A DNA stretch of 64,000 nucleotides, from the sequence record OQ411014.1; one strand, given 5' to 3'. Origin of the DNA: Escherichia phage EJP2. Of the stretch, positions 8,789-62,056 are shown in pieces. Made by a program: the position numbers and the translations under genes. Every line of letters starts with the position of its first letter. Within the stretch, counting starts at the first letter, position 1. The notes below the pieces were generated by a model, which was not told the origin of the DNA, searched no databases, and saw only the letters and a list, made by a program, of their open reading frames with translations.

Positions 8789-9309
8789 TGACTGCACTAA
8801 ATGATTTCATGACTCTCAGTACTGAAATAGTATCTTCTACAAAGGGAGAAATCACAATCCCCCGTGATGATGTATATATTATACTAACACCAGGAATAGC
8901 AGAGTCCATAAAAGTATACGAAAATAATGATTCTTTACAAGTACTGTACATGCCACAAGATTATCTTTTTGTAAATTCTGATTTTACTTTACATCAATTT
9001 CCTACGTATAGTAATTTTCAACAACGTTTCCCAAGTGATAAAACAAAAGAAATAAAATACGTACAGTACGATAATAGTTTTAAAAGTCGTACTCATTTTA
9101 TCGCTTTAGAAACTGAAGAAGATATATTCAATGCTATGATAGTACATTCATTTGATATAAACGCAGCACTAGAATTGATGAGTGTATTGACTGAAGTACC
9201 GGAAGATGTAACAGGTATTATTACTATAAGAACTAAGTACAATGAAGAATTGTTACTAAAGTGCAACAGTATGATGCGAGATTATATTAGTAATAAGGAA
9301 AACACATGA
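8788..9309 (+). CDS. paralogous early-gene family member
   Basis: start moved to the ATG overlapping the upstream TAA (N-terminus MTALNDF parallels MTVLNDF of the next gene); motif EEDIFNAMIVHSFD; close paralog of 9306-9836. Confidence 0.55.
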   Translation: MTALNDFMTLSTEIVSSTKGEITIPRDDVYIILTPGIAESIKVYENNDSLQVLYMPQDYLFVNSDFTLHQFPTYSNFQQRFPSDKTKEIKYVQYDNSFKSRTHFIALETEEDIFNAMIVHSFDINAALELMSVLTEVPEDVTGIITIRTKYNEELLLKCNSMMRDYISNKENT

Positions 9310-9836
9310 CAGTACTGAATGATTTTCTTAGAGATAGTAAGTACATTATTGATAATATTGCTGAAGAAATATCTATACCATCAATGGATGAGTTGATGAT
9401 GATATCAATGGACCCTGATGGTGGGTTGGTAAAAGTATATTACGATTTTGAACTGCACGTAATGTTCATGAAAAATCATTATGAACACGCTTCTGATATG
9501 TTGACACTTTATGATTTTGGGACGCATAAAAATTACCAACAACGTTTACCAGCAAACAAATCAAAGGATATGAAACTAAGTGTTTACAATTCTGCTGGTG
9601 TTACTATTCCGACTAAGATTTCTCTTGGTTCTGAAGAGGGAATCTTTTCTGCGGAATTAGTACATGATTCCAGTACTGAAGAAGCACTTGAAGTTATGCA
9701 AGTAATTTCTGAAGTACCTGACAGTACCAAAGGAATACTTACTATAAGAAATAAGTACAACGAACGATTACTTATAAAATGTAATGTGTTATTAGAACAA
9801 TATATACATGGAGTACTGAATGCAAATATGGTATAA
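9306..9836 (+). CDS. paralogous early-gene family member
   Basis: motif EEGIFSAELVHD; internal FGTHKNYQQRLPANKSK parallels FPTYSNFQQRFPSDKTK of the previous gene. Confidence 0.6.
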   Translation: MTVLNDFLRDSKYIIDNIAEEISIPSMDELMMISMDPDGGLVKVYYDFELHVMFMKNHYEHASDMLTLYDFGTHKNYQQRLPANKSKDMKLSVYNSAGVTIPTKISLGSEEGIFSAELVHDSSTEEALEVMQVISEVPDSTKGILTIRNKYNERLLIKCNVLLEQYIHGVLNANMV

Positions 9837-10113
9837 TGTAGTACAGAAGGATTGGGATGATAATGAAAAGACAGGGATGCGTTTCATTTCTGTTATCATT
9901 TCGAATGAAACTCGTTATGTTCTACGAGCGGATAAGAATGATGGCGTATGGGAATCATCTTTGTATCCAATGGGTTACAAATATTCTTTAGATGATGTTG
10001 CAAGTCTAGCTGATTCTATGATAGACTCAGTAAAGATTATGAAGTTCCTTGAACGTCCAGAGCTAACAACGGCTGATGATGTACAGGAATTTTTGGCGAC
10101 TTTACAAGGGTAA
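9820..10113 (+). CDS. hypothetical protein
   Basis: 97-aa ORF. Confidence 0.45.
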   Translation: MQIWYNVVQKDWDDNEKTGMRFISVIISNETRYVLRADKNDGVWESSLYPMGYKYSLDDVASLADSMIDSVKIMKFLERPELTTADDVQEFLATLQG

Positions 10114-28661: not shown

Positions 28662-29081
28662 TTATTCGTCATCTTTGTTGACAAAATCCAAATCTAGTAC
28701 ACTAGGTGGTGGTACATTACAAAAATATAAATCCCACGGTTTGTAGATTGATTCACCTGAACTTAACTTAATTTTGTGCGTTTGAAATGAAGTAACAAAT
28801 GCTTGATCTATTCGCATAAAAAATGTATTCTTACCAAGCAATGTAGACAGTACTGAATCAGATGCACTTGTGTCCAAGTACTGACCATCTTTATCAGTAT
28901 ATGTCAATCTGATAAAGCTGAAAATATTACCATCAGTGTCAACTAAATCAAAGGTGTTATCAGAGCGTTGTCTGAAAATATTGATGTTGTTTTTGATTAC
29001 ACCATTAATGTTTGCAACTGGGACACAGAATCCACCAATACTAAAAGGTAGTTCACCTCTACCTGCAATCACTTTTGCCAT
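28662..29081 (-). CDS. hypothetical protein, N-terminal paralog of the 29920-30576 gene
   Basis: one of only two convincing minus-strand genes; N-terminal region alignable with the Ig-like protein at 29920-30576. Confidence 0.55.
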   Translation of the reverse strand: MAKVIAGRGELPFSIGGFCVPVANINGVIKNNINIFRQRSDNTFDLVDTDGNIFSFIRLTYTDKDGQYLDTSASDSVLSTLLGKNTFFMRIDQAFVTSFQTHKIKLSSGESIYKPWDLYFCNVPPPSVLDLDFVNKDDE

Positions 29082-29238
29082 ACTATATCCTTTTATAAAA
29101 AACTGGTCATAAAATGACCTACATAATATTTATGTTACTTGTTCATTTTTTGTACAGCTAATGCTAAATAAATTTATATTGACACTGATAAGCAAACATG
29201 CTAGAGTAATCATCTTACACATTCATTGTAGAGGGTAT

Positions 29239-29853
29239 ATGAAAAAAATTCCATTAGAATTGTTACAGATATTTCTTATCTGGTTGCTATGTACTGTTCC
29301 CAGTTCAGCAGAAAGTTTGTCCAGTACTATCTTTAGAGATAAAGAGAATATTGTTCATTTTGGTGCTCCAGTTTCATTCGAGGCATATAGCAAATTACTG
29401 AAAATGTATAAGATAAAACCATTTTCTGAAATTAGACTCACCAGTAATGGTGGAGAATATGATGCTGGTATGAAGATTGCTCACTTAGTTTACACCAATG
29501 ACATATCAGTCTTTGTTCCAAAGTACTGTGCAAGTGCATGTACATTTATATTTTTTGGAGCTAGGGTTGAGCACCGTGACATTGCACCAACGGCAATGTT
29601 GGGATTACATAATGTGTCGTTTGGTATGAACAACTCAACGGGTGAAGACGCGAATAACTCGTCGATAACAGTCAAGGAGGCACTTGATTTTGCACAAGAA
29701 GCAGTTGTAAGATCAGGAATGATGATTTCATTCTATTCTGCGAATGGGATACCAAGTGATGTACTACTTCAAGTATCACAAACATATGGTCAAGGTATCA
29801 TAAATGTGCAACGGGCTGACTTAGTTCGTTGGGGTGCAATACAAGCGAAATAA
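29239..29853 (+). CDS. secreted protein with possible ClpP/SppA-like fold
   Basis: start set at the ATG after RBS AGAGGG; signal-peptide-like MKKIPLELLQIFLIWLLCTVPSSA; TSNGGEYDAG and CASACTF loosely resemble ClpP motifs. Confidence 0.45.
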   Translation: MKKIPLELLQIFLIWLLCTVPSSAESLSSTIFRDKENIVHFGAPVSFEAYSKLLKMYKIKPFSEIRLTSNGGEYDAGMKIAHLVYTNDISVFVPKYCASACTFIFFGARVEHRDIAPTAMLGLHNVSFGMNNSTGEDANNSSITVKEALDFAQEAVVRSGMMISFYSANGIPSDVLLQVSQTYGQGIINVQRADLVRWGAIQAK

Positions 29854-29919: not shown

Positions 29920-30576
29920 TTACGCCCCCAAAATAGTAACATTACATTGTGCAGTAAAATTACCATCAACACTAGTTGCTGTTATAATAGCATTCCCAGC
30001 CAACAAACCAGTGACCAGACCAGAATCAGAAACTGAAGCTACTGTTGGTTCGGAAGATTCCCACAGTACTGATTGGTTTGTAGCATCCTCTGGTGTGAAA
30101 ATTGGCGTGAGTTGGTCAGTTTCACCTGTCTGAATAGAAGATGTTACTTTATTCAATGCAAGACCAGTAACATACACTGAACGATCACGTTGACTTGCAT
30201 AAGAATTAAGATAAAATGATGAACCATCGCCTAGGATGATTTTATTTAAGAATAGTTTTATTGCAAAACCGACCAGTTCATCTTTTTCTGGATCATATAC
30301 CTTAATACAAAATTTACCAGGGTCAAGTTTAGCAGCAAGTTCTTCATCGGTATCACTTAGCAATAACGGTTGTTTGTTCTTATCCAAAGCTGTTATTTGA
30401 AGAAATTCATATAGTGAATCACCAGTTTTGGATTGCAAGTCAAACATGATAGTACTTCTCTGTTTTGATATATTAATAGTAGTTAGTTCTGTACCATCTT
30501 TCAATACGGCAGCGTTGACATTTATACCCGAAATATCGAACGGAAATTGGTCGCGGCGAGCAATTGGTTTACCCAT
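29920..30576 (-). CDS. Ig-like (Big_2-type) domain protein, possible virion decoration or adhesin
   Basis: C-terminal ~70 aa match the Big_2 pattern (SVLWESSEPTVASVSDSGLVTGLLAGNAIITATSVDGNFTAQCNVTI). Confidence 0.6.
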   Translation of the reverse strand: MGKPIARRDQFPFDISGINVNAAVLKDGTELTTINISKQRSTIMFDLQSKTGDSLYEFLQITALDKNKQPLLLSDTDEELAAKLDPGKFCIKVYDPEKDELVGFAIKLFLNKIILGDGSSFYLNSYASQRDRSVYVTGLALNKVTSSIQTGETDQLTPIFTPEDATNQSVLWESSEPTVASVSDSGLVTGLLAGNAIITATSVDGNFTAQCNVTILGA

Positions 30577-30633
30577 TGTAACCTCCTTATAGTTTACAAT
30601 TTTAAATATTTATCCATAATGTGCTAAAAAAAC

Positions 30634-30663
30634 TTGCACATTCCAAGATAATACTGATATAAT
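30634..30663 (+). promoter_or_regulatory. sigma70-type promoter with extended -10
   Basis: TTGCAC 30634-30639 and TGaTATAAT ending at 30663. Confidence 0.55.
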
Positions 30664-30716
30664 AGACTCATCCAACGCGAAGTTGGTGTAAACAAACTAC
30701 TAAGAGGACTTAGACA

Positions 30717-31790
30717 ATGAAAAACGAAAACGTATATGTATACATCGGACGCTTCCAGCCAGCACATAAAGGCCACGAAGCAGTACTTGAAAATGCAATC
30801 AAAAAAGCTGACCGTGTTGTTATTCTAGTGGGTAGTGCTGAACAAGCTCGTTCCCCTAAGAACCCGTTCACCTTTGAAGAACGCCAAAAAGTACTGGACG
30901 GTATCACAACTCGTCTTGCACAAGATGAATGGGCGAAAGGTCGCCGTGTGATGATCGACATCCTACCTGTACATGACTTCGTATACAACAACCAGAAATG
31001 GCTCATGGAAGTTCAAGAACAAGTTCGTTCCTGCACTAAAAGTGAAAACATTACTCTAACTGGTTGTCGTAAACATGGCGATGATAGTACTTTCTATCTT
31101 GAGTTCTTCCCTCAGTGGAATCAAGATTTCATTACAGAAACTACACAAGAAGATGTTGGTATCAATGCCACTCAACTACGTAACCAATTCTTCAGTACTA
31201 AACAAGTACCTGAACAAAATGTACTTACTCCTGAAACTGTAGAGTTCCTTGAGAAGTTCAGCGTAGAAAAGAAAGATGTACTAGATTACCTAGTGAAAGA
31301 ACATGCTTTTACTACAAAATATAAAGCAGACATGAAGAAACAACTACCATTTGACACAATCCCATTCCTGACTGGTGATAGTCTGATTGTCTGTGCAGGT
31401 CATGTTCTTGTAGGTATTCGTCGCTCTGAACCAGGCAAAGGTCAGTACTGTCTACCTGGTGGGTTCTTCGATGCATGGAAAGATAAAGATCAAGTTGATA
31501 CTGCTTTACGTGAACTCAAAGAAGAAACCAAAATTGATGTACCAATGAATAAACTACGCGGTTCTATTGAACGTGTAGAAGAGTTTGGTGACTTTGACCG
31601 TGACCCACGCTGGCGTGTAATCACTAAGTGCATCTACATCAAACTTGACGGTACTAAACTACCTAAAGTAAAAGGCTCAGATGATCTCAAAGGTTGCTTC
31701 TGGATGCCTATGACTGAAATTGCTAAAAATCGTGCTAACTTCTTTGTTGATCACGTTTCCATCATTGACACGTTCTTAGGAATCCTGTAA
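30717..31790 (+). CDS. natV: bifunctional NMN adenylyltransferase / Nudix hydrolase (NadM-Nudix, NatV-like)
   Basis: N-terminal YIGRFQPAHKGH (HxGH) and a C-terminal Nudix box (...ALRELKEETKI). Confidence 0.75.
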   Translation: MKNENVYVYIGRFQPAHKGHEAVLENAIKKADRVVILVGSAEQARSPKNPFTFEERQKVLDGITTRLAQDEWAKGRRVMIDILPVHDFVYNNQKWLMEVQEQVRSCTKSENITLTGCRKHGDDSTFYLEFFPQWNQDFITETTQEDVGINATQLRNQFFSTKQVPEQNVLTPETVEFLEKFSVEKKDVLDYLVKEHAFTTKYKADMKKQLPFDTIPFLTGDSLIVCAGHVLVGIRRSEPGKGQYCLPGGFFDAWKDKDQVDTALRELKEETKIDVPMNKLRGSIERVEEFGDFDRDPRWRVITKCIYIKLDGTKLPKVKGSDDLKGCFWMPMTEIAKNRANFFVDHVSIIDTFLGIL

Positions 31791-31791
31791 T

Positions 31792-32331
31792 ATGAATGTA
31801 ATTTCTCTGACTCCAGGTTTGAAAGCAGACTTGGATGCAGTAAAGGAAAGTAAGTACAATAAGATAACTAGCTGTACTGAACTAATCTTGAGTACTGATG
31901 GTTATTCTGAATGTAATCAATTGTTCGTTGATGCACTTCAACACATTGATAAAAAACTGTATCTAACCGATTTTCTTTATCTTATTCAGAGAACGTGGAT
32001 TAGCAATGCACAAAACAGAAATCACCTGAATTCAGGTGAAAGTACTTCAAGCTATGGTTATTGGAAATATAACTTCGCTGGAGTATCATCGGATACTTTA
32101 TACATTACGAACTATGTTCCGTCTGGAAATATCAGAATTGTCGATTCAGTACAACATTATGAATATTATGATATTGACACGGAAAAGCCAAGTCTGTATA
32201 CTATATCCGATATCGTAATTAGAAATGAAAAGACATTGTTCAACATGGTATTTCCAACGACTACTAAACTGTTTTCGAAGGAATACATGAAGTTCACAAT
32301 TCCATTGTCTCTGATTATGAACAACCAATAA
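31792..32331 (+). CDS. hypothetical protein
   Basis: 179-aa ORF between the two NAD salvage genes. Confidence 0.5.
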   Translation: MNVISLTPGLKADLDAVKESKYNKITSCTELILSTDGYSECNQLFVDALQHIDKKLYLTDFLYLIQRTWISNAQNRNHLNSGESTSSYGYWKYNFAGVSSDTLYITNYVPSGNIRIVDSVQHYEYYDIDTEKPSLYTISDIVIRNEKTLFNMVFPTTTKLFSKEYMKFTIPLSLIMNNQ

Positions 32332-32379
32332 GAACGCGGAGTTCTTATATAACATCAACTACCAAAGAGGTAATATAAA

Positions 32380-33852
32380 ATGCAAAACGTAAATTTCATC
32401 CTAAACGCAGATAGTTACAAGCACTCTCATTTACTAATGATGAAAGAAGGTGTTCAAGCTCTTGAATCAAACATCATTGCTCGTAAACCATCTAAATTCA
32501 CCAGTCATGTAGTTATGATGGGTCTTCAGATTTTCGTTCAGGAATATCTGGATATCACAATTACTGCGGCTGATATCGATGAAGCAGAGATTGAAACAAA
32601 CGAACGTGGTGATGATTTTGACCGCGACTTCTGGGAACACATCGTGAATGTACACAAAGGTAAACTACCTTTACATATCCGTGCTATCCCTGAAGGTACA
32701 GTAGTTCCAGTTGGTATGCCGTTGGTTCGCTCCTTCAGTACTGACCCACGTACTATGGTACTCGCTAGTTTCGTCGAAACTCAATTACAACGTGCAATCT
32801 GGTTCCAAACTACTGTTGCATCTAATGCTCGCAGTATCAAGGAATTTCTTGCTGATACTATGGAACGTCATGCTGGTCATCGCTTTGTGGATTATCATCT
32901 ACATAACTTCGGCTGTCGTGGTGCAAGTTCCTATGAAACAGCAATGCTCGCAGGTGTAGCTCATGCCGCTCTATTCAGTGGCTCTGACTGCCTATTAGCA
33001 AACCGTAGTATCAAATACTACTACAATACTACTAAACCATATGTTAGTAGTGTTATGGCGAGTGAACACAGTGCTACATGTTCTAACTCCGATGCAGACA
33101 AGCGTGATGATTCAGCAATGGCGTTGAAGATGGTTCGCCTATGGGAAAAGAAAGTAGATAAGTTCATTGCTAATGGTTCAGTTGGTGCACCCCCAATTGT
33201 TTCTGTAGTAATCGATACTTATGATGCTTATCGCTTTGTTCGTGAGTTCATCGGTACTCGTCTAAAATCTACAATCGAAGAGATTGCAGCTAAATGTCCA
33301 AGTGCTAAACTAGTAATGCGTCCTGATAGTGGTAATCCACTAACTATGCCAATCGAAATCGTATCTATCCTTATGGAGAAATTCGGTTCAGTACTGAATG
33401 CTAATGGCATGAAAGTACTTCCATCTTTCATTGGTGTTCTTCAGGGCGACGGAGTTTCAGAAAGTTCAATCCGTGAAATCGTCCACAACCTAGAGAAAAA
33501 GAACTACTCTCTAGAGAATCTAATCTTTGGTATGGGTGGTAAAAACTCCCACGTCGAAGGTGGTCGTGATGCATATTCTTTCGCCCAGAAAGGTTGTGCA
33601 CAGCAACTAGCTGATGGTACTTGGGAAGATTTGTTCAAAGATCCTATTACTGACGTTGGGAAAAAATCCCTTCGTGGTCGTGTAACTACTTACTTGTGCA
33701 AAGAAAGTGGGAAGATGATGGCTGAACGAATCGAACTACAAGAAGTAAATCCTTTCTTAGAAGATATGATGGTTGACATTTTTGTAAATGGTGATATCAT
33801 GAATCTAAGCTCTTTTGATGATGTACGTGCTCGTGCGAACAAGGGATTGTAA
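32380..33852 (+). CDS. nadV: nicotinamide phosphoribosyltransferase (NAMPT/NadV)
   Basis: 490 aa; N-terminal NADSYKHSH and overall pattern match the NAMPT family. Confidence 0.8.
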   Translation: MQNVNFILNADSYKHSHLLMMKEGVQALESNIIARKPSKFTSHVVMMGLQIFVQEYLDITITAADIDEAEIETNERGDDFDRDFWEHIVNVHKGKLPLHIRAIPEGTVVPVGMPLVRSFSTDPRTMVLASFVETQLQRAIWFQTTVASNARSIKEFLADTMERHAGHRFVDYHLHNFGCRGASSYETAMLAGVAHAALFSGSDCLLANRSIKYYYNTTKPYVSSVMASEHSATCSNSDADKRDDSAMALKMVRLWEKKVDKFIANGSVGAPPIVSVVIDTYDAYRFVREFIGTRLKSTIEEIAAKCPSAKLVMRPDSGNPLTMPIEIVSILMEKFGSVLNANGMKVLPSFIGVLQGDGVSESSIREIVHNLEKKNYSLENLIFGMGGKNSHVEGGRDAYSFAQKGCAQQLADGTWEDLFKDPITDVGKKSLRGRVTTYLCKESGKMMAERIELQEVNPFLEDMMVDIFVNGDIMNLSSFDDVRARANKGL

Positions 33853-33860
33853 TATCAATG

Positions 33861-33884
33861 GGGAGTCTTAGTACTCCCTTTTTT
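33861..33884 (+). terminator. intrinsic terminator
   Basis: stem GGGAGT/ACTCCC followed by a T6 run. Confidence 0.55.
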
Positions 33885-33895
33885 GCGAGGTTTAT

Positions 33896-34534
33896 ATGTG
33901 GTCTAAAGTAAAAGATAATCTAGATGCGTACATTATCCCACTACACGATGTGGTATGGCTACGAGATGAAGTACGTAAGGCAATGACCGAAGGTTATGCG
34001 TTTCCAGCAGAAGAAGATGAAATTCAAAAAGATGCATCAGTAGTTTCTGATGAAATGATTATCGGTTATCCAGATCCAGAAAATGAAAATATGTTCATGT
34101 TTGGATTCAAAGATGATGATTGTCTGGACGACCAAAGTATCATTGACCACATTACACATCGCTGTTGGGAAGATATTAGTGAAGCTGGTATTGTTTCATT
34201 TGGTGAAATGGAAAGTTTTTCAGCAGTTGTGTATAATGAAGATGTTCCAAATTTCCGTAAGCACAAGACAGAAGTGGATAACTTCCTAACTCATTTGATT
34301 GGTCGATCTATTGTTAGTGATGAGCCATCATTCCTCAATAACACTGCGGAATGTAAAGAATTCATCTTAGAACGATATGATTATGAAAATATGAAACGTA
34401 CTGCGACGAATAAGTGGGGCAACTTCAATTATCGTTTATTTGAAAATGATGAAGGAGATGTCGTGACAATCGTTACATACAATGCTAAACTGATCTCCTA
34501 CTATAACTTCAGATACAAAGACGAGGATCTATAA
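33896..34534 (+). CDS. hypothetical acidic protein
   Basis: 212-aa ORF. Confidence 0.5.
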   Translation: MWSKVKDNLDAYIIPLHDVVWLRDEVRKAMTEGYAFPAEEDEIQKDASVVSDEMIIGYPDPENENMFMFGFKDDDCLDDQSIIDHITHRCWEDISEAGIVSFGEMESFSAVVYNEDVPNFRKHKTEVDNFLTHLIGRSIVSDEPSFLNNTAECKEFILERYDYENMKRTATNKWGNFNYRLFENDEGDVVTIVTYNAKLISYYNFRYKDEDL

Positions 34535-34788: not shown

Positions 34789-35391
34789 ATGACTTGTATT
34801 ATCGCTTTTACTGATGGTAAATCATCCTTCATCGCAGGTGACAAACTAGGTTCCAACGGCTTTACTAAATCAGTAATGGTTGAACCAAAAGTCTTTGAGA
34901 AAGAGTTTCATCGTGTTAGTACCAATGATGAAGGTACTGTGCGGACGCGTGAAACGATGGCACTCGGTTATACTACGTCATTTCGTATGGGACAACTTCT
35001 GTCTTACAATCTAGTACTGCCTGACCAAGATGCGAATCAATCCTTCAGTCAGTACCTGGTTCAGAAAGTAATTCCACTTATTCGTCATATGTTCAAAGAT
35101 GAATGGGGTGCACGTGATAGCTCACAAGATATTGGTGGTGGTCAGTTCATTATTCTGCATAACCACACTATCTACGAAGTTCAAGGTGACTTCTCAGTAC
35201 TGCAACCTAAGACACAAATTACTGCTGTAGGTTCAGGTACTTACCATGCAATTGCAGCTATGCAAGCACTACAAAGTGTTTCATCTGATACTAAGAAAGA
35301 TCTACTACATTACGTACCAACGATTTTTGATATTGTCAGTACTAATGTAACTTCAGTATCTGCTGAACATGATGTATTGCATTACAAATAA
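34789..35391 (+). CDS. Ntn-hydrolase, HslV/proteasome-beta-like
   Basis: N-terminus MTCIIAF with Thr2 as the candidate nucleophile, followed by SFIAGDKLGS, resembling the HslV start TTIV...AGDGQ. Confidence 0.45.
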   Translation: MTCIIAFTDGKSSFIAGDKLGSNGFTKSVMVEPKVFEKEFHRVSTNDEGTVRTRETMALGYTTSFRMGQLLSYNLVLPDQDANQSFSQYLVQKVIPLIRHMFKDEWGARDSSQDIGGGQFIILHNHTIYEVQGDFSVLQPKTQITAVGSGTYHAIAAMQALQSVSSDTKKDLLHYVPTIFDIVSTNVTSVSAEHDVLHYK

Positions 35392-35849: not shown

Positions 35850-36281
35850 ATGGCAGGAAAAGGATATTGCAGCCTAAAACTTGATAAAGCACAAGCAAAG
35901 GAATTGAAACGGATTTTAAAAATCGGTGGCGTTGAATGCTTAGACCCTTCGGATTTGCATTGTACTTTAATGTACGATGAAAGTAATCCTAACATCAAAA
36001 TGCTCAAGAACACAAAGACTTATAAAGCTAAAGTAACTGGTGTTAGTAAATTGGGTGATGCGATTGTATTGGATTTGGAATCCCCTGGCATCAAGAAACG
36101 TCATCAGGAATTGAAGAATGCTGGTTATAAGCACTCATTCCCTGAATTGAAAATTCATATGAGCATCAACTACGATCCAAAAAGTACTGATAAGGATTTA
36201 CTAGAACTCTTTATCAAATTGAAGGGTATTCCTTCAGTACTGATATTTGGTAATGAAAAATTTGAATCTCTAAAGCCGTAA
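35850..36281 (+). CDS. 2H phosphoesterase superfamily protein (LigT/CPDase-like)
   Basis: two H-x-T/S-x motifs (LHCTLMY and IHMSINY) with typical spacing. Confidence 0.5.
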   Translation: MAGKGYCSLKLDKAQAKELKRILKIGGVECLDPSDLHCTLMYDESNPNIKMLKNTKTYKAKVTGVSKLGDAIVLDLESPGIKKRHQELKNAGYKHSFPELKIHMSINYDPKSTDKDLLELFIKLKGIPSVLIFGNEKFESLKP

Positions 36282-36291
36282 GGAGTATATA

Positions 36292-37050
36292 ATGGACGTG
36301 AATAAATTTCTTGACAACAAAGGACAAAAGCGTCTGTTAGTACTAACTGGTGCGGGTTTCAGTGCGGAATCTGGAGTTAGTACATTTCGTGATGCAGAAG
36401 ATGCCCTATGGGAAGGTGTGAAGATTAACGATGTATGTAACATTGCGAGCTTAGGCTTTAAGTACGCACAAGTACATGCATTCTACAACACACTAAGAAC
36501 TATCATCAAGGACAAAGAGCCTAACGAAGCACACTATGAAATTAGCGTTATGGAGTCAATGTACGGGGATAACTTCCTACACATGACTGCTAATATCGAT
36601 GATTTATATGAGCGTGCTGGTGGCACTGCTATGCACCTTCATGGCAACATCAAAGAAGTCATTGAGAACTATTCAATGGCACATAACGACTTTACAGTAC
36701 TGGATGTTGGATATGAAGTTTATATTCCAAAGGAAGGTGTATTTGCTAAACCTAATGTAGTATTCATTGGTGAATCAGAGCGTTATGTGAATAACCAGCG
36801 TATTCCGTTGTATGAAGAACGAAATAAAGTACTGGCATCCTTGACAGACTTAGATACCGTTGTTATCATTGGTTCATCGGATACAATCCTGAAGTGGAGT
36901 TCGTTGGTTGGTTTAGGCACACCAGCTTATACCATCAACATCAACACAAGAAAGAATGACACTGACTGGGCGTTCGATAAGAAGATTTACAAGCCAGTAA
37001 CTAAAGCGTTATTGGAATTGAGGGAGTTAGTTCTTACACGGATGGGATAG
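36292..37050 (+). CDS. Sir2-family NAD-dependent deacylase / ADP-ribosyltransferase
   Basis: NAD-binding motif GAGFSAESGVSTFRD and catalytic HG motif (HLHGN); no zinc-ribbon cysteines seen. Confidence 0.75.
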   Translation: MDVNKFLDNKGQKRLLVLTGAGFSAESGVSTFRDAEDALWEGVKINDVCNIASLGFKYAQVHAFYNTLRTIIKDKEPNEAHYEISVMESMYGDNFLHMTANIDDLYERAGGTAMHLHGNIKEVIENYSMAHNDFTVLDVGYEVYIPKEGVFAKPNVVFIGESERYVNNQRIPLYEERNKVLASLTDLDTVVIIGSSDTILKWSSLVGLGTPAYTININTRKNDTDWAFDKKIYKPVTKALLELRELVLTRMG

Positions 37051-37059
37051 GAGTGAGTT

Positions 37060-37614
37060 ATGGATTTTACAGAGATACCATTCGGACAACGCAGTGAAAG
37101 ATTTGACTGTGCGTTCGTTTGGATCTACGCTAAGAATTGCACACCATACAAGGATTATCCATATAATGATATTCCTAACGTATCTTTAGTACTGACAGAG
37201 TTACGCTTTGATGGTCTAATGGGTGCGGTTGGTGGAGCAGTTGAGGATGATGATCCTTCATTGGAAGTGGCAGTGCAACGTGAAGCCTTAGAGGAAATAA
37301 ACTTTTCTCTTGACATTACTAATCTGAAACCGTTATTATCATTACGTTCCCCATACGGAGCACATAACCATAGTTTCTCGTACGAAGTACAGTACGATGA
37401 GCTACTAGAGATTCGGAACAACGCATACAAAGGTGCTCACTTCAGTGCTGAAAATGCGGGTGTAAATCTGATTCACGTATGTCGCTATACGAAGGGAAGA
37501 GGGAACGAATGTGGTTACAATAACATTCTTACACAGAATTTTATTGGCACATCCAAACTGGAACTAGAGCGTTTAGTTCATAATGAAAATTTACTAATAA
37601 ATTACCTTGCATAA
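37060..37614 (+). CDS. Nudix hydrolase
   Basis: Nudix box GAVGGAVEDDDPSLEVAVQREALEEINF. Confidence 0.65.
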   Translation: MDFTEIPFGQRSERFDCAFVWIYAKNCTPYKDYPYNDIPNVSLVLTELRFDGLMGAVGGAVEDDDPSLEVAVQREALEEINFSLDITNLKPLLSLRSPYGAHNHSFSYEVQYDELLEIRNNAYKGAHFSAENAGVNLIHVCRYTKGRGNECGYNNILTQNFIGTSKLELERLVHNENLLINYLA

Positions 37615-37624
37615 AGGATAAAAT

Positions 37625-37957
37625 ATGTATAAGATGTTTATAGACGACCTTCGGGATGCAGAGAAGCATTACCCAAATGAAGGATTCATCGTCACAAGGA
37701 CTTACAATGAAGCTGTACAGTACGTACAAGAACATGGTCTACCTAGTTTTGTTTCATTCGACCATGACTTGGGCGACACTGACAGTACTGATGAGAAGAC
37801 TGGATATTCTTTTGCTAAGTTCCTCATCGAGTACATGATTGATAACGATTTGCGGGAACCGTTTGAGTACTTTATTCACAGTGCTAATCCAGTTGGTGCA
37901 GAGAATATCAAACAGTACTTGCAAAATGGGTTCAACTTTATCCAAGGGCAAGCATGA
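37625..37957 (+). CDS. hypothetical protein
   Basis: 110-aa ORF. Confidence 0.5.
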   Translation: MYKMFIDDLRDAEKHYPNEGFIVTRTYNEAVQYVQEHGLPSFVSFDHDLGDTDSTDEKTGYSFAKFLIEYMIDNDLREPFEYFIHSANPVGAENIKQYLQNGFNFIQGQA

Positions 37958-38244
37958 AAGTAATAACATTTATTCTGATTTTGATTGTTGTTGTTGGTAT
38001 TCGCCTTAAAATAGCGGAGAACCAATACAACACTGAAAGACTGAATATTACGAAAGAATCTGGAACAGTAGTTGCAACTGGACAATGCAACAAATACACT
38101 TGTGCTTACTCTGTAAAAACCTCTAGTGGTTCTACAGTGAACAGTACTGGTGACACTCCGGTAAGTCTCGGTCAAATCGTATACCGTGAATGCTGGGAAG
38201 AAAGGGTCAGGGGTCCGCGTTGTTACGTAGACTTTAGACCATAA
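37954..38244 (+). CDS. small secreted or membrane protein
   Basis: N-terminal hydrophobic MKVITFILILIVVVGI and several cysteines. Confidence 0.45.
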   Translation: MKVITFILILIVVVGIRLKIAENQYNTERLNITKESGTVVATGQCNKYTCAYSVKTSSGSTVNSTGDTPVSLGQIVYRECWEERVRGPRCYVDFRP

Positions 38245-38269
38245 AACACTATCATGAAAAGGGAATTTT

Positions 38270-39724
38270 ATGAAAAAATATGCTATTGATACAAACGTAC
38301 TTCTAAGCGATCCAAACGCAGCAACCGCTTTCAAAGGTGCTACAGTGGTTCTACCATTTACAGTACTGGAAGAAATGGACTCCATCAAGAGTCGTGGTGT
38401 TGACGTTAGCCGTGATGCACGTGTAGCAATTCGCAATATCAGTAACATCCTGGAAGACGCGTCTCATGAAGAGATTAGTACTACTGGGGTTGATATGTCC
38501 AAACTACATCCACATTTAGATTCCGACAGTCGTCTAATGATTGTTACATCTGAAGAAGCTGAAGCACTTCTACGTGTTGCAGGTATTGATAAGTCCGATG
38601 CTGAACTTACAAAAGTTGCTACACTAATGAACAGTACTGTACCGGATGACAAGATTATTCTTGTTGCTCTAGCTACAGAATCAGTACTGGTTACTCGTGA
38701 TATCAACATGCGTATCAAAGCTATGGCTTATGGTGTTGAAGTTCAGGACTATCGTAGTGATGTTACTATTTCCGATTCTGACCTACTACATATTGGGAAC
38801 CACAAACTAGAGTTTTCGTTCTGGGATACCATTGCGGATCGTGGTTTAGAAGTTTTCAGTACTAAAGAAGGTCGTAACACTTATCAACTAATTGCTAAAG
38901 ATGCAATTCAGGATCTACTACCAGAAAATCTATGCGTTGGTGACTATCTATATGATGACACTGATTTGCTAATGGTATATGATGGAGAAGGTGATCGTGA
39001 GTTCTCTGATGGTGAAGTTGATGACACAGTGTACTCCGTGTTCATTGATGTTGGTCAACACAGTGCAATGCGTACTAAGATTTGGGATATCAAAGCTAAG
39101 AACGTGAAACAAGCAATGGCAATCAACAGTATTCTTGACCCTAATGTTCACTTGACAGTACTGTTAGGTTCTGCGGGTACAGGTAAGACTTTGATTACTC
39201 TAGCATGTGCACTAGAACTAACATTAGAGAAGCGTCAGTACGATAAAGTTATTTTCTCTAAAACCCAAGACTCACAGTTTGATGAAATTGGTTTCTTACC
39301 AGGAACCGAAATGGAAAAAATGCTTCCGAATTGTGGACCTGCACTGGATGCATTGGAATTCCTTCACAAAGATGATGCTAACCCTCAAGGTTCAATTGAA
39401 GAAATCATCAAACGTAATGTTGTACAATTCAAAGCACTGAACTTTATTCGTGGACGTTCGTTTACCAATACAATTCTAGTTGTTGATGAATTCCAAAACA
39501 TTACTCCGGCTCAAGCTAAAACTATCTTGACACGGGCAGGAATGAACTGTAAAGTTATCATCATGGGTAACTTAGCACAGATTGATAGTAAGTTTATCAG
39601 TTCTGTAAACAGCGGTTTGACCTATGTAGTTGAGAAGTTCAAAGATTGGGAAGGTTGTCGTATCATCGAACTCGAAGGTGTTGTACGTTCTGCACTAGCT
39701 GAATTCGCTGAAGAAAATATGTAA
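38270..39724 (+). CDS. phoH: PIN-domain / PhoH-like ATPase fusion (PhoH2-type)
   Basis: N-terminal PIN-like YAIDTNVLLSDP; Walker A LLGSAGTGKT and conserved PhoH C-terminal region. Confidence 0.8.
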   Translation: MKKYAIDTNVLLSDPNAATAFKGATVVLPFTVLEEMDSIKSRGVDVSRDARVAIRNISNILEDASHEEISTTGVDMSKLHPHLDSDSRLMIVTSEEAEALLRVAGIDKSDAELTKVATLMNSTVPDDKIILVALATESVLVTRDINMRIKAMAYGVEVQDYRSDVTISDSDLLHIGNHKLEFSFWDTIADRGLEVFSTKEGRNTYQLIAKDAIQDLLPENLCVGDYLYDDTDLLMVYDGEGDREFSDGEVDDTVYSVFIDVGQHSAMRTKIWDIKAKNVKQAMAINSILDPNVHLTVLLGSAGTGKTLITLACALELTLEKRQYDKVIFSKTQDSQFDEIGFLPGTEMEKMLPNCGPALDALEFLHKDDANPQGSIEEIIKRNVVQFKALNFIRGRSFTNTILVVDEFQNITPAQAKTILTRAGMNCKVIIMGNLAQIDSKFISSVNSGLTYVVEKFKDWEGCRIIELEGVVRSALAEFAEENM

Positions 39725-62020: not shown

Positions 62021-62056
62021 TATTATATCAATACTACTCTATAAGGAGATAATAAA

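Follow-up and report, generated by a model that had tools for sequence, protein, structure and literature searches.

A predicted three-gene NARP2-type NAD+ salvage operon in the jumbo phage EJP2

Between positions 30717 and 33852 of the 64,000-nucleotide stretch of Escherichia phage EJP2 analysed here (sequence record OQ411014.1; hereafter, the window), the open reading frame (ORF) listing places three ORFs on the plus strand, encoding proteins of 357, 179 and 490 amino acids. The first (30717–31790) is predicted to encode a NadM-type nicotinamide mononucleotide (NMN) adenylyltransferase fused to a Nudix hydrolase, the second (31792–32331), separated by 1 nt from the stop codon of the first, an accessory protein, and the third (32380–33852) a nicotinamide phosphoribosyltransferase (NAMPT). 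The minus-strand ORFs within this region all encode 98 amino acids or fewer, and nothing was found that supports them as genes. The composition of the window is uniform (GC content 0.33–0.41), no tRNA genes were found in its 64 kb, and an Rfam scan of its whole length returned no family at the gathering threshold. Judging from sequence comparison, the region very probably constitutes an early-expressed, three-gene operon for the salvage of nicotinamide adenine dinucleotide (NAD+), of the type named NARP2, in a ~350-kb jumbo phage.

The phage to which the window belongs is a member of an Eneladusvirus/Mimasvirus-like group. Its closest cultured relatives are Erwinia phage Hallingskeid, Serratia phage BF, Yersinia phage fHe-Yen9-04, the Erwinia pEa_SNUABM phages, Cronobacter phage GAP32, Pectobacterium phage CBB and Salmonella phages 7t3/Munch, from all of which it is distinct, being otherwise matched only by metagenome contigs, some of them near-identical to the window. 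In these relatives and contigs the gene order is the same, i.e., NadM-Nudix, an ORF of 163–182 amino acids, and NAMPT, and the structure of the operon is kept across 11–12 lineages. Counted separately, homologs of NadM-Nudix were found in 453 phage records and homologs of NAMPT or the related enzyme Namat in 961.

The 357-residue protein matched NadM-Nudix enzymes far beyond chance, which identifies it, at the level of sequence, as a NadM-type NMN adenylyltransferase with a Nudix domain. Pfam assigned CTP_transf_like to its N-terminal part (5e-12) and NUDIX to its C-terminal part (5.5e-13), PHROG phrog_395 matched it end to end (7e-74), and its best NCBIfam matches, also end to end, were all bifunctional NMN adenylyltransferase (NMNAT)/Nudix models, down to 3.8e-79. 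Residues 8–354 aligned collinearly with residues 11–338 of the Synechocystis enzyme slr0787 (2qjo, 7.7e-54), and a full-length alignment was likewise obtained with the Francisella enzyme (2qjt, 7.9e-40). The nucleotidyltransferase motifs GRFQPAHKGH (residues 11–20) and INATQLR (residues 149–155) align with those of 2qjo and 2qjt, and the HxGH, ISSTxxR-type and REUxEE motifs are all shared with the bacterial proteins. As for the Nudix domain, the core of the catalytic helix, RELKEE (residues 265–270, corresponding to REUXEE), is intact. The preceding GX5E segment of the canonical box (GX5EX7REUXEEXGU), however, contains a 2-residue insertion and presents K/D where a glutamate is expected. This deviation is common to the whole jumbo-phage clade and is not found in the KVP40-like and bacterial enzymes.

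The 490-residue protein yielded matches to the Pfam domains NAMPT_N (1e-13) and NAPRTase (3.5e-27), the latter corresponding to the phosphoribosyltransferase barrel, and to phrog_448 (1.7e-129). Among solved structures, its top matches were genuine NAMPTs, namely the Xanthomonas enzyme (7yqo, 4e-72) and human NAMPT (~1e-65). Its residues Y13, H175, F177, R180 and D203 align with human Y18, H191, F193, R196 and D219, and its H230, R314, D316 and R396 with human H247, R311, D313 and R392; we take the human residues to include those that stack against nicotinamide, those that bind phosphoribosyl pyrophosphate (PRPP) and the autophosphorylated histidine. Human Asp219, the counterpart of Asp203, confers specificity for nicotinamide over nicotinate.

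An alternative identity for this protein is that of a nicotinate phosphoribosyltransferase, the name given in the GenBank records of some relatives and borne by the best-matching NCBIfam model, or that of a Namat, the NAMPT homolog of the NARP1 pathway, which uses ADP-ribose pyrophosphate (ADPR-PP). The aromatic clamp of Namat (F392/Y396) corresponds to G385/K389 of human NAMPT, and a sequence alignment with the human enzyme places K388/E393 of the phage protein at these positions, so that the clamp residues are missing. NARP1 shares with the predicted operon its end product and proposed purpose, but it draws ADPR-PP from Adps and needs no NMNAT; here, the operon includes an NMNAT gene, and no Prs/Adps homolog was detected in the 64-kb window (best tblastn E = 0.71). 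Moreover, Table S2 of Osterman et al. (bioRxiv 10.1101/2024.02.11.579819) classes the NAMPTs of the relatives BF and 7t3 as 'Nmnat-associated', and no phage is reported to carry both NARP1 and NARP2. We rejected both alternative identities on the basis of the NAMPT_N domain, Asp203, the absent clamp and the NMNAT of the operon, and regard them as very improbable; by its sequence, the third protein is a PRPP-using NAMPT and not a NARP1-type Namat.

These results agree with a preliminary description of the locus, made from the letters alone, which had placed a NadM-Nudix fusion at 30717–31790 and a NAMPT at 32380–33852: both assignments held up against profile models, solved structures and motifs. 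That description had also named the catalytic residues as a point to examine, and here the NAMPT residues, the NadM motifs and RELKEE were found intact and the GX5E segment of the Nudix domain was found to be non-canonical.

We next turn to the boundaries of the operon. The gene upstream (29920–30576) is encoded on the opposite strand, and therefore the promoter of the NadM-Nudix gene must lie in 30577–30716. In this interval, a scan matched a sigma-70-type promoter on the plus strand (30635–30663; TGCACA-17-TATAAT with an extended -10 TG), and TGnTATAAT was found at the same distance in 10 of 11 aligned related leaders, XaC1 presenting TACTAT at this place. By itself, the promoter scan did not rise above shuffled sequences (27 sites versus 22.9 expected). 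The extended -10 motif TGNTATAATA occurs seven times in the window versus 1.7 expected, a count reached by none of the shuffles, with sites at 1866, 16660, 23883, 29980, 30655 and 39993 on the plus strand and at 62021 on the minus strand. These copies suggest that host-type promoters are distributed over the window, and only the one at 30655 precedes a two-hairpin leader (described below). At the other end, directly 3' of the NAMPT gene, lies a predicted intrinsic terminator on the plus strand (33860–33885), consisting of the hairpin GGGGAGT-CTTAGT-ACTCCCT followed by TTTTTG. A GC-rich hairpin with a T-run was found 3' of NAMPT in all 12 lineages compared, each with a different stem sequence. 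We accepted the promoter and the terminator because these elements are conserved across relatives, and not because of the scan statistics. The NadM-Nudix gene, located 590 bp upstream of NAMPT, the 179-residue ORF and NAMPT itself are thus predicted to form one promoter-to-terminator transcription unit, and the host-type promoter suggests that this unit is expressed early.

Both enzyme genes are preceded by a leader that folds into two hairpins. The first leader (30672–30713, plus strand), identified using RNAfold and a comparison across lineages, lies 5' of NadM-Nudix and comprises a stem-loop P1, CCAAC-GCGAA-GTTGG (30672–30686), and a stem-loop P2, CTAAG-AGGA-CTTAG (30700–30713), which holds the Shine-Dalgarno sequence in its loop and whose exact sequence occurs once in the window. 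The second (32328–32372, plus strand) lies 5' of NAMPT; its P1, ATAAGAAC-GCGGA-GTTCTTAT (32328–32348), overlaps the stop codon of the middle ORF, and its P2, TACC-AAAGA-GGTA (32360–32372), forms around the Shine-Dalgarno sequence. The common plan is a stem of 5–8 bp with a G-rich loop of the GCGnnGT type, an A-rich spacer and a short Shine-Dalgarno hairpin. By RNAfold, this architecture is the same before NadM-Nudix in 11 lineages despite different stem sequences, and the arrangement before NAMPT is likewise found in 11 lineages besides the window. The related loci with the leader before both genes are L001, L002, L003, L007, L008, L012, L014, L015, L017, L018 and L020. In every lineage examined, the two-hairpin leader precedes both enzyme genes and not the middle ORF.

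The P1 stems have at least 10 different sequences among the lineages, and in K64-1 the arms of P2 are swapped. The changes between lineages are apparently compensatory and the stems apparently covarying; MAFFT places the stems of different subgroups in different registers. The core motifs of the leader are confined to these two sites, both in the window and in the related loci that were fetched, and an Rfam search with the leader gave no match. A generic scan of the window for a hairpin with a Shine-Dalgarno loop followed by ATG gave 10 occurrences (shuffle mean ~5, maximum 10), and because this is not clearly above the shuffles, we do not claim a window-wide motif of this kind. As a means of co-regulating both enzymes, the leader could act as an operator, mark a processing site or stabilise the transcript, and its repetition before both of their genes suggests post-transcriptional control of a pathway that is costly to the cell.

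The enzyme pair itself has a well-described counterpart. In vibriophage KVP40, NadV (NAMPT) and NatV (NMNAT-Nudix) were described by Lee et al. 2017, as related by the papers that cite it, and Osterman et al. (bioRxiv 10.1101/2024.02.11.579819) reported that this NAMPT and NMNAT pair rebuilds NAD+, naming the pathway NARP2. The window agrees with KVP40 in both enzyme families, in their domain architecture and in the expected chemistry, in keeping with the proposal of the preliminary description that the pair represents the KVP40-type route for rebuilding NAD+. That description had further placed the pair under a dedicated promoter and terminator, for which the conserved TGnTATAAT and the terminator hairpin of 12 lineages now speak, and had called the 179-residue ORF between the enzymes uncharacterised, which it is by our searches as well (see below). 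The window differs from KVP40 in that its genes form one predicted unit with an extra ORF, in the repeated leader hairpins and in the 2-residue insertion of the Nudix domain. In addition, NAMPT and NadM-Nudix are unclustered in RB43 and in VH7D, a KVP40-like phage, with no NAMPT within ~4 kb of the NadM-Nudix gene, and the compact operon is therefore a feature of the jumbo-phage clade.

Within that clade the likeness is close: in phages BF (BF_0106-0108), fHe-Yen9-04 (g096-g098), GAP32 (GAP32_112-114), CBB, 7t3/Munch and Hallingskeid, the operon agrees with that of the window in the order of its three genes, in the genes on either side, in its promoter and terminator and in its leader hairpins. 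The K64-1/RaK2 group (Alcyoneusvirus) also has NadM-Nudix followed by NAMPT, with similar neighbours, leader hairpins and terminator, but it lacks the middle ORF, and its NAMPT is ~51% identical to that of the window. According to the literature, every phage with NadM also has NadV, and NAD+ synthesis clusters of jumbo phages were discussed by Iyer et al. 2022 and in a 2024 Microbiome paper. Because the module is discussed in the literature, and because the GenBank records of relatives already name both enzyme genes, it is less novel than first thought; it represents one more jumbo-phage example of a defined, catalogued pathway and alone changes little.

The gene identities, intact motifs, operon boundaries and conservation described above are direct observations; how the operon would work can be proposed by analogy, taking the catalytic activities and the Nudix substrate from those of the homologs. 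NAMPT would join nicotinamide and PRPP to yield NMN, which the NadM domain would then adenylylate with ATP to yield NAD+. The Nudix domain would most likely hydrolyse ADP-ribose (possibly also NAD(H)) to AMP and ribose-5-phosphate, and the latter could re-enter PRPP synthesis via the host Prs. Since NADases of the TIR, SIR2 and SEFIR types release nicotinamide and ADP-ribose, the operon should keep NAD+ available under attack, and a rise in NAD+ is expected in undefended cells too. A benefit against defence systems is expected by analogy with KVP40, whose NARP2 genes overcame type I Thoeris and DSR2 (Osterman et al. bioRxiv 10.1101/2024.02.11.579819).

Several points weigh against this view of the operon. 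The NCBIfam scores fall under the curated equivalog cut-offs (266 versus 397; 403.4 versus 405), and NadM-Nudix is only ~32% identical to the enzyme of a KVP40-like phage. The substrate and activity of its Nudix domain are uncertain because of the GX5E insertion and of a first glutamate that is out of canonical register. Furthermore, NARP2 carries a cost for E. coli or is toxic to it (Osterman et al. bioRxiv 10.1101/2024.02.11.579819), and for this reason its net benefit would depend on the host. Finally, because the phage's own Sir2-like gene and other genes related to NAD and ADP-ribose lie 2–4 kb downstream, supply of NAD+ is an equally direct reading of the locus.

According to this last reading, the operon would mainly feed NAD+ to the phage's own consumers or to general metabolism, rather than counter NADase defences. 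Four genes identified by profile matches bear on it, all within 6 kb of the operon and on the same strand: those encoding a Sir2-like protein (36292–37050), a Nudt16-like Nudix protein (37060–37614), a cREC domain protein (37625–37957) and a PIN-PhoH protein (38270–39724). Together with the adjoining 2H gene described below, these are the candidate consumers. For Serratia phage BF, Iyer et al. 2022 predicted that the sirtuin-centred neighbourhood is an RNA-repair system that uses NAD+, and jumbo phages commonly combine genes for NAD synthesis with NAD-consuming genes (2024 Microbiome paper). NARP2 was, moreover, found to raise NAD+ in defence-free cells as well (Osterman et al. bioRxiv 10.1101/2024.02.11.579819). 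The KVP40 pair, on the other hand, abolished defence by Thoeris and DSR2, and the terminator sets the operon apart from the genes downstream. The two roles are compatible and would use the same biochemistry, only the selective reason being different. On this evidence, we consider a role mainly in supply to be a serious possibility, though not the one we favour.

Apart from the leader element, the middle ORF is the sole unexplored part of the operon. Searches with it of Pfam, PHROGs, NCBIfam and PDB sequences returned nothing, a profile of its family compared with PDB and Pfam at E values up to 10 returned only noise, and a word-indexed homolog search found only near-identical copies. When 1.84 billion cluster representatives were searched exhaustively with HMMER, only 7 true relatives were recovered; one further hit, P0007, was a spurious, repetitive, eukaryote-like protein and was discarded. 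The divergent proteins of BF, Yen9-04, GAP32 and CBB join the family by profile, via their C-terminal halves, and the family as a whole has no stretch conserved enough for an alignment-based search of related loci. Wherever both flanks were readable, the ORF lies between NadM-Nudix and NAMPT; in one short contig, the readable flank is the upstream one, with NadM-Nudix directly before the ORF.

The ratio of non-synonymous to synonymous substitution rates (dN/dS) of the middle ORF, calculated against its 89%-identical homolog (P0002), was 0.31, compared with 0.05–0.19 for the neighbouring genes, and this substitution pattern marks it as a real gene under purifying selection. It is, at the same time, the fastest-diverging syntenic gene nearby, with identities of 19–30% versus 62–84% for NadM-Nudix and 76–85% for NAMPT (between the window and its cultured relatives, 19–28%, 62–84% and 76–79%, respectively); in the single pair whose enzymes are 92% identical, it is 66% identical. 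The differences between the window and the 89%-identical homolog cluster in one loop, at residues ~71–87 (SNAQNRNHLN versus PTTSSLFHRN). Because the K64-1/RaK2 group keeps the rest of the operon and has no middle ORF, the two-enzyme route does not need this gene.

An AlphaFold model of the middle protein was confident (predicted local distance difference test, pLDDT, 86; predicted template modelling score, pTM, 0.82), as was a second model, made for a member ~28% identical to it and without window-type sequences (pLDDT 87, pTM 0.83). Both models present the same order of secondary-structure elements, and the least confident part of each is the loop at residues ~71–87, whose length varies in the family. 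The top ranks of a Foldseek search were human ITPA and KomB, with weak scores (E 2e-3 to 1e-2; template modelling score, TM, 0.33–0.45), and among viral models Foldseek found members of the family itself and weak HAM1 matches. When the family was compared with E. coli RdgB using hhalign, the probability was 0.03. In an alignment of 15 family members, conservation of 80% or more is limited to R67, L103, I141, F161, I170, P171 and L174, and there is no conserved acidic residue or lysine; in this alignment, the Ham1 loop T-x-N-x-x-K-x-x-E and the catalytic Asp were not recognisable or conserved. Compared with ITPase/Ham1/Maf/YjjX proteins, including KomB, the middle protein therefore lacks sequence or profile similarity and the Ham1 residues, with TM below 0.5: the models make it ITPase/Ham1/Maf-like in its predicted fold only, and not a member of the Ham1 family. 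It is probably not a pyrophosphatase.

Our best guess is that the middle protein is a non-catalytic binder, the surface of which changes quickly with the host or with its repertoire of defences. A precedent that makes a role as binder or mimic attractive is KomB: this protein of the NAD-depleting Kongming system is a HAM1 without catalytic activity, which senses dITP (deoxyinosine triphosphate) and switches on a SIR2 NADase; we found no report of such a phage binder or KomB mimic in the literature. The protein might be a third component of the module, an ITPase-fold binder of nucleotides or of a protein partner that sequesters a signal such as dITP, mimics KomB and so interferes with SIR2-type NADase effectors, or tunes the phage enzymes. 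Two models built from largely different sets of sequences agree in topology, ITPA and KomB rank first in Foldseek with HAM1 domains among the viral models, and the gene is tightly linked to NAD genes, with a 1-nt gap, and evolves very fast, as do many anti-defence proteins. The low Foldseek scores, the failure of profile comparisons to link the protein to RdgB, Pfam or PDB sequences and a conserved core limited to Arg67 and some hydrophobic residues, with no recognisable phosphate-binding or catalytic constellation, all argue the other way. So does the distribution of the gene: all its carriers belong to one phage lineage, where linkage could be inherited synteny, and the related K64-1 group lives without it. 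We thus deem a function as third component, as modelled, unlikely. Less likely still is a more elaborate scheme, in which a catalytically inert, ITPase-fold third component of NARP2 would block the destruction of NAD+ while the operon rebuilds it and the leaders co-regulate the enzymes. Should the protein turn out to be an anti-defence factor or a regulator, NARP2 would have three parts in this clade, and NAD conflicts would involve HAM1-like folds in the phage as well as in the host.

In three metagenome contigs (L004, L005 and L006; at 9063–9971), an extra gene of 302 amino acids lies between NadM-Nudix and the middle ORF. The middle ORF of these contigs is 99% identical to that of the window, which is without the insert (junction 31790/31792). 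The inserted gene matches DUF723 and a treble-clef zinc finger, and probably encodes a homing endonuclease; contig L004 has more DUF723/CapR genes nearby, one of them after PhoH. The insert looks like a presence/absence polymorphism of a mobile gene within the operon.

Regarding the surrounding genes, those from the Sir2-like gene to PIN-PhoH belong to a five-gene, same-strand cluster (35850–39724), which lies 2 kb from the NAD+ salvage operon and opens with a gene for a 2H phosphoesterase of 143 amino acids (35850–36281, plus strand; Pfam). This protein matched the Pfam family Acb1 (anti-CBASS) at 1.8e-17 and the Acb1 structure 7t26 weakly, at 3.8e-4, with both of its H-x-T/S motifs (LHCT and IHMS) aligned to those of 7t26. 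It may degrade cyclic-nucleotide immune signals, instead of or besides processing ADP-ribose or RNA cyclic phosphates. Directly after the terminator lies a 212-residue ORF (33896–34534), whose match to the uncharacterised family PHROG 36508 is confined to the C-terminal half of that family. The ORF is present in contigs L005, L006 and L012, missing from the otherwise near-identical L004, and was undetectable in Hallingskeid, BF, 7t3 and the contig of P0003.

Upstream of the operon, the neighbouring minus-strand gene (29920–30576) encodes an Ig-domain virion protein with Big_2 and an N-terminal domain (PHROGs 33171/10468) that is shared by a second, paralogous virion protein (28662–29081, minus strand). 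The Ig-domain protein found at this position in relatives ranges from 218 amino acids to 560–820 amino acids with repeated Big_2 domains. Between these two genes lies one for a ClpP-like protease (29161–29853; PHROG 26024, with Pfam CLP_protease just under its cut-off), and downstream of the operon lies one for an HslV-family peptidase-like protein (34789–35391; PHROG 1040), such that two protease-like genes flank the NAD+ operon.

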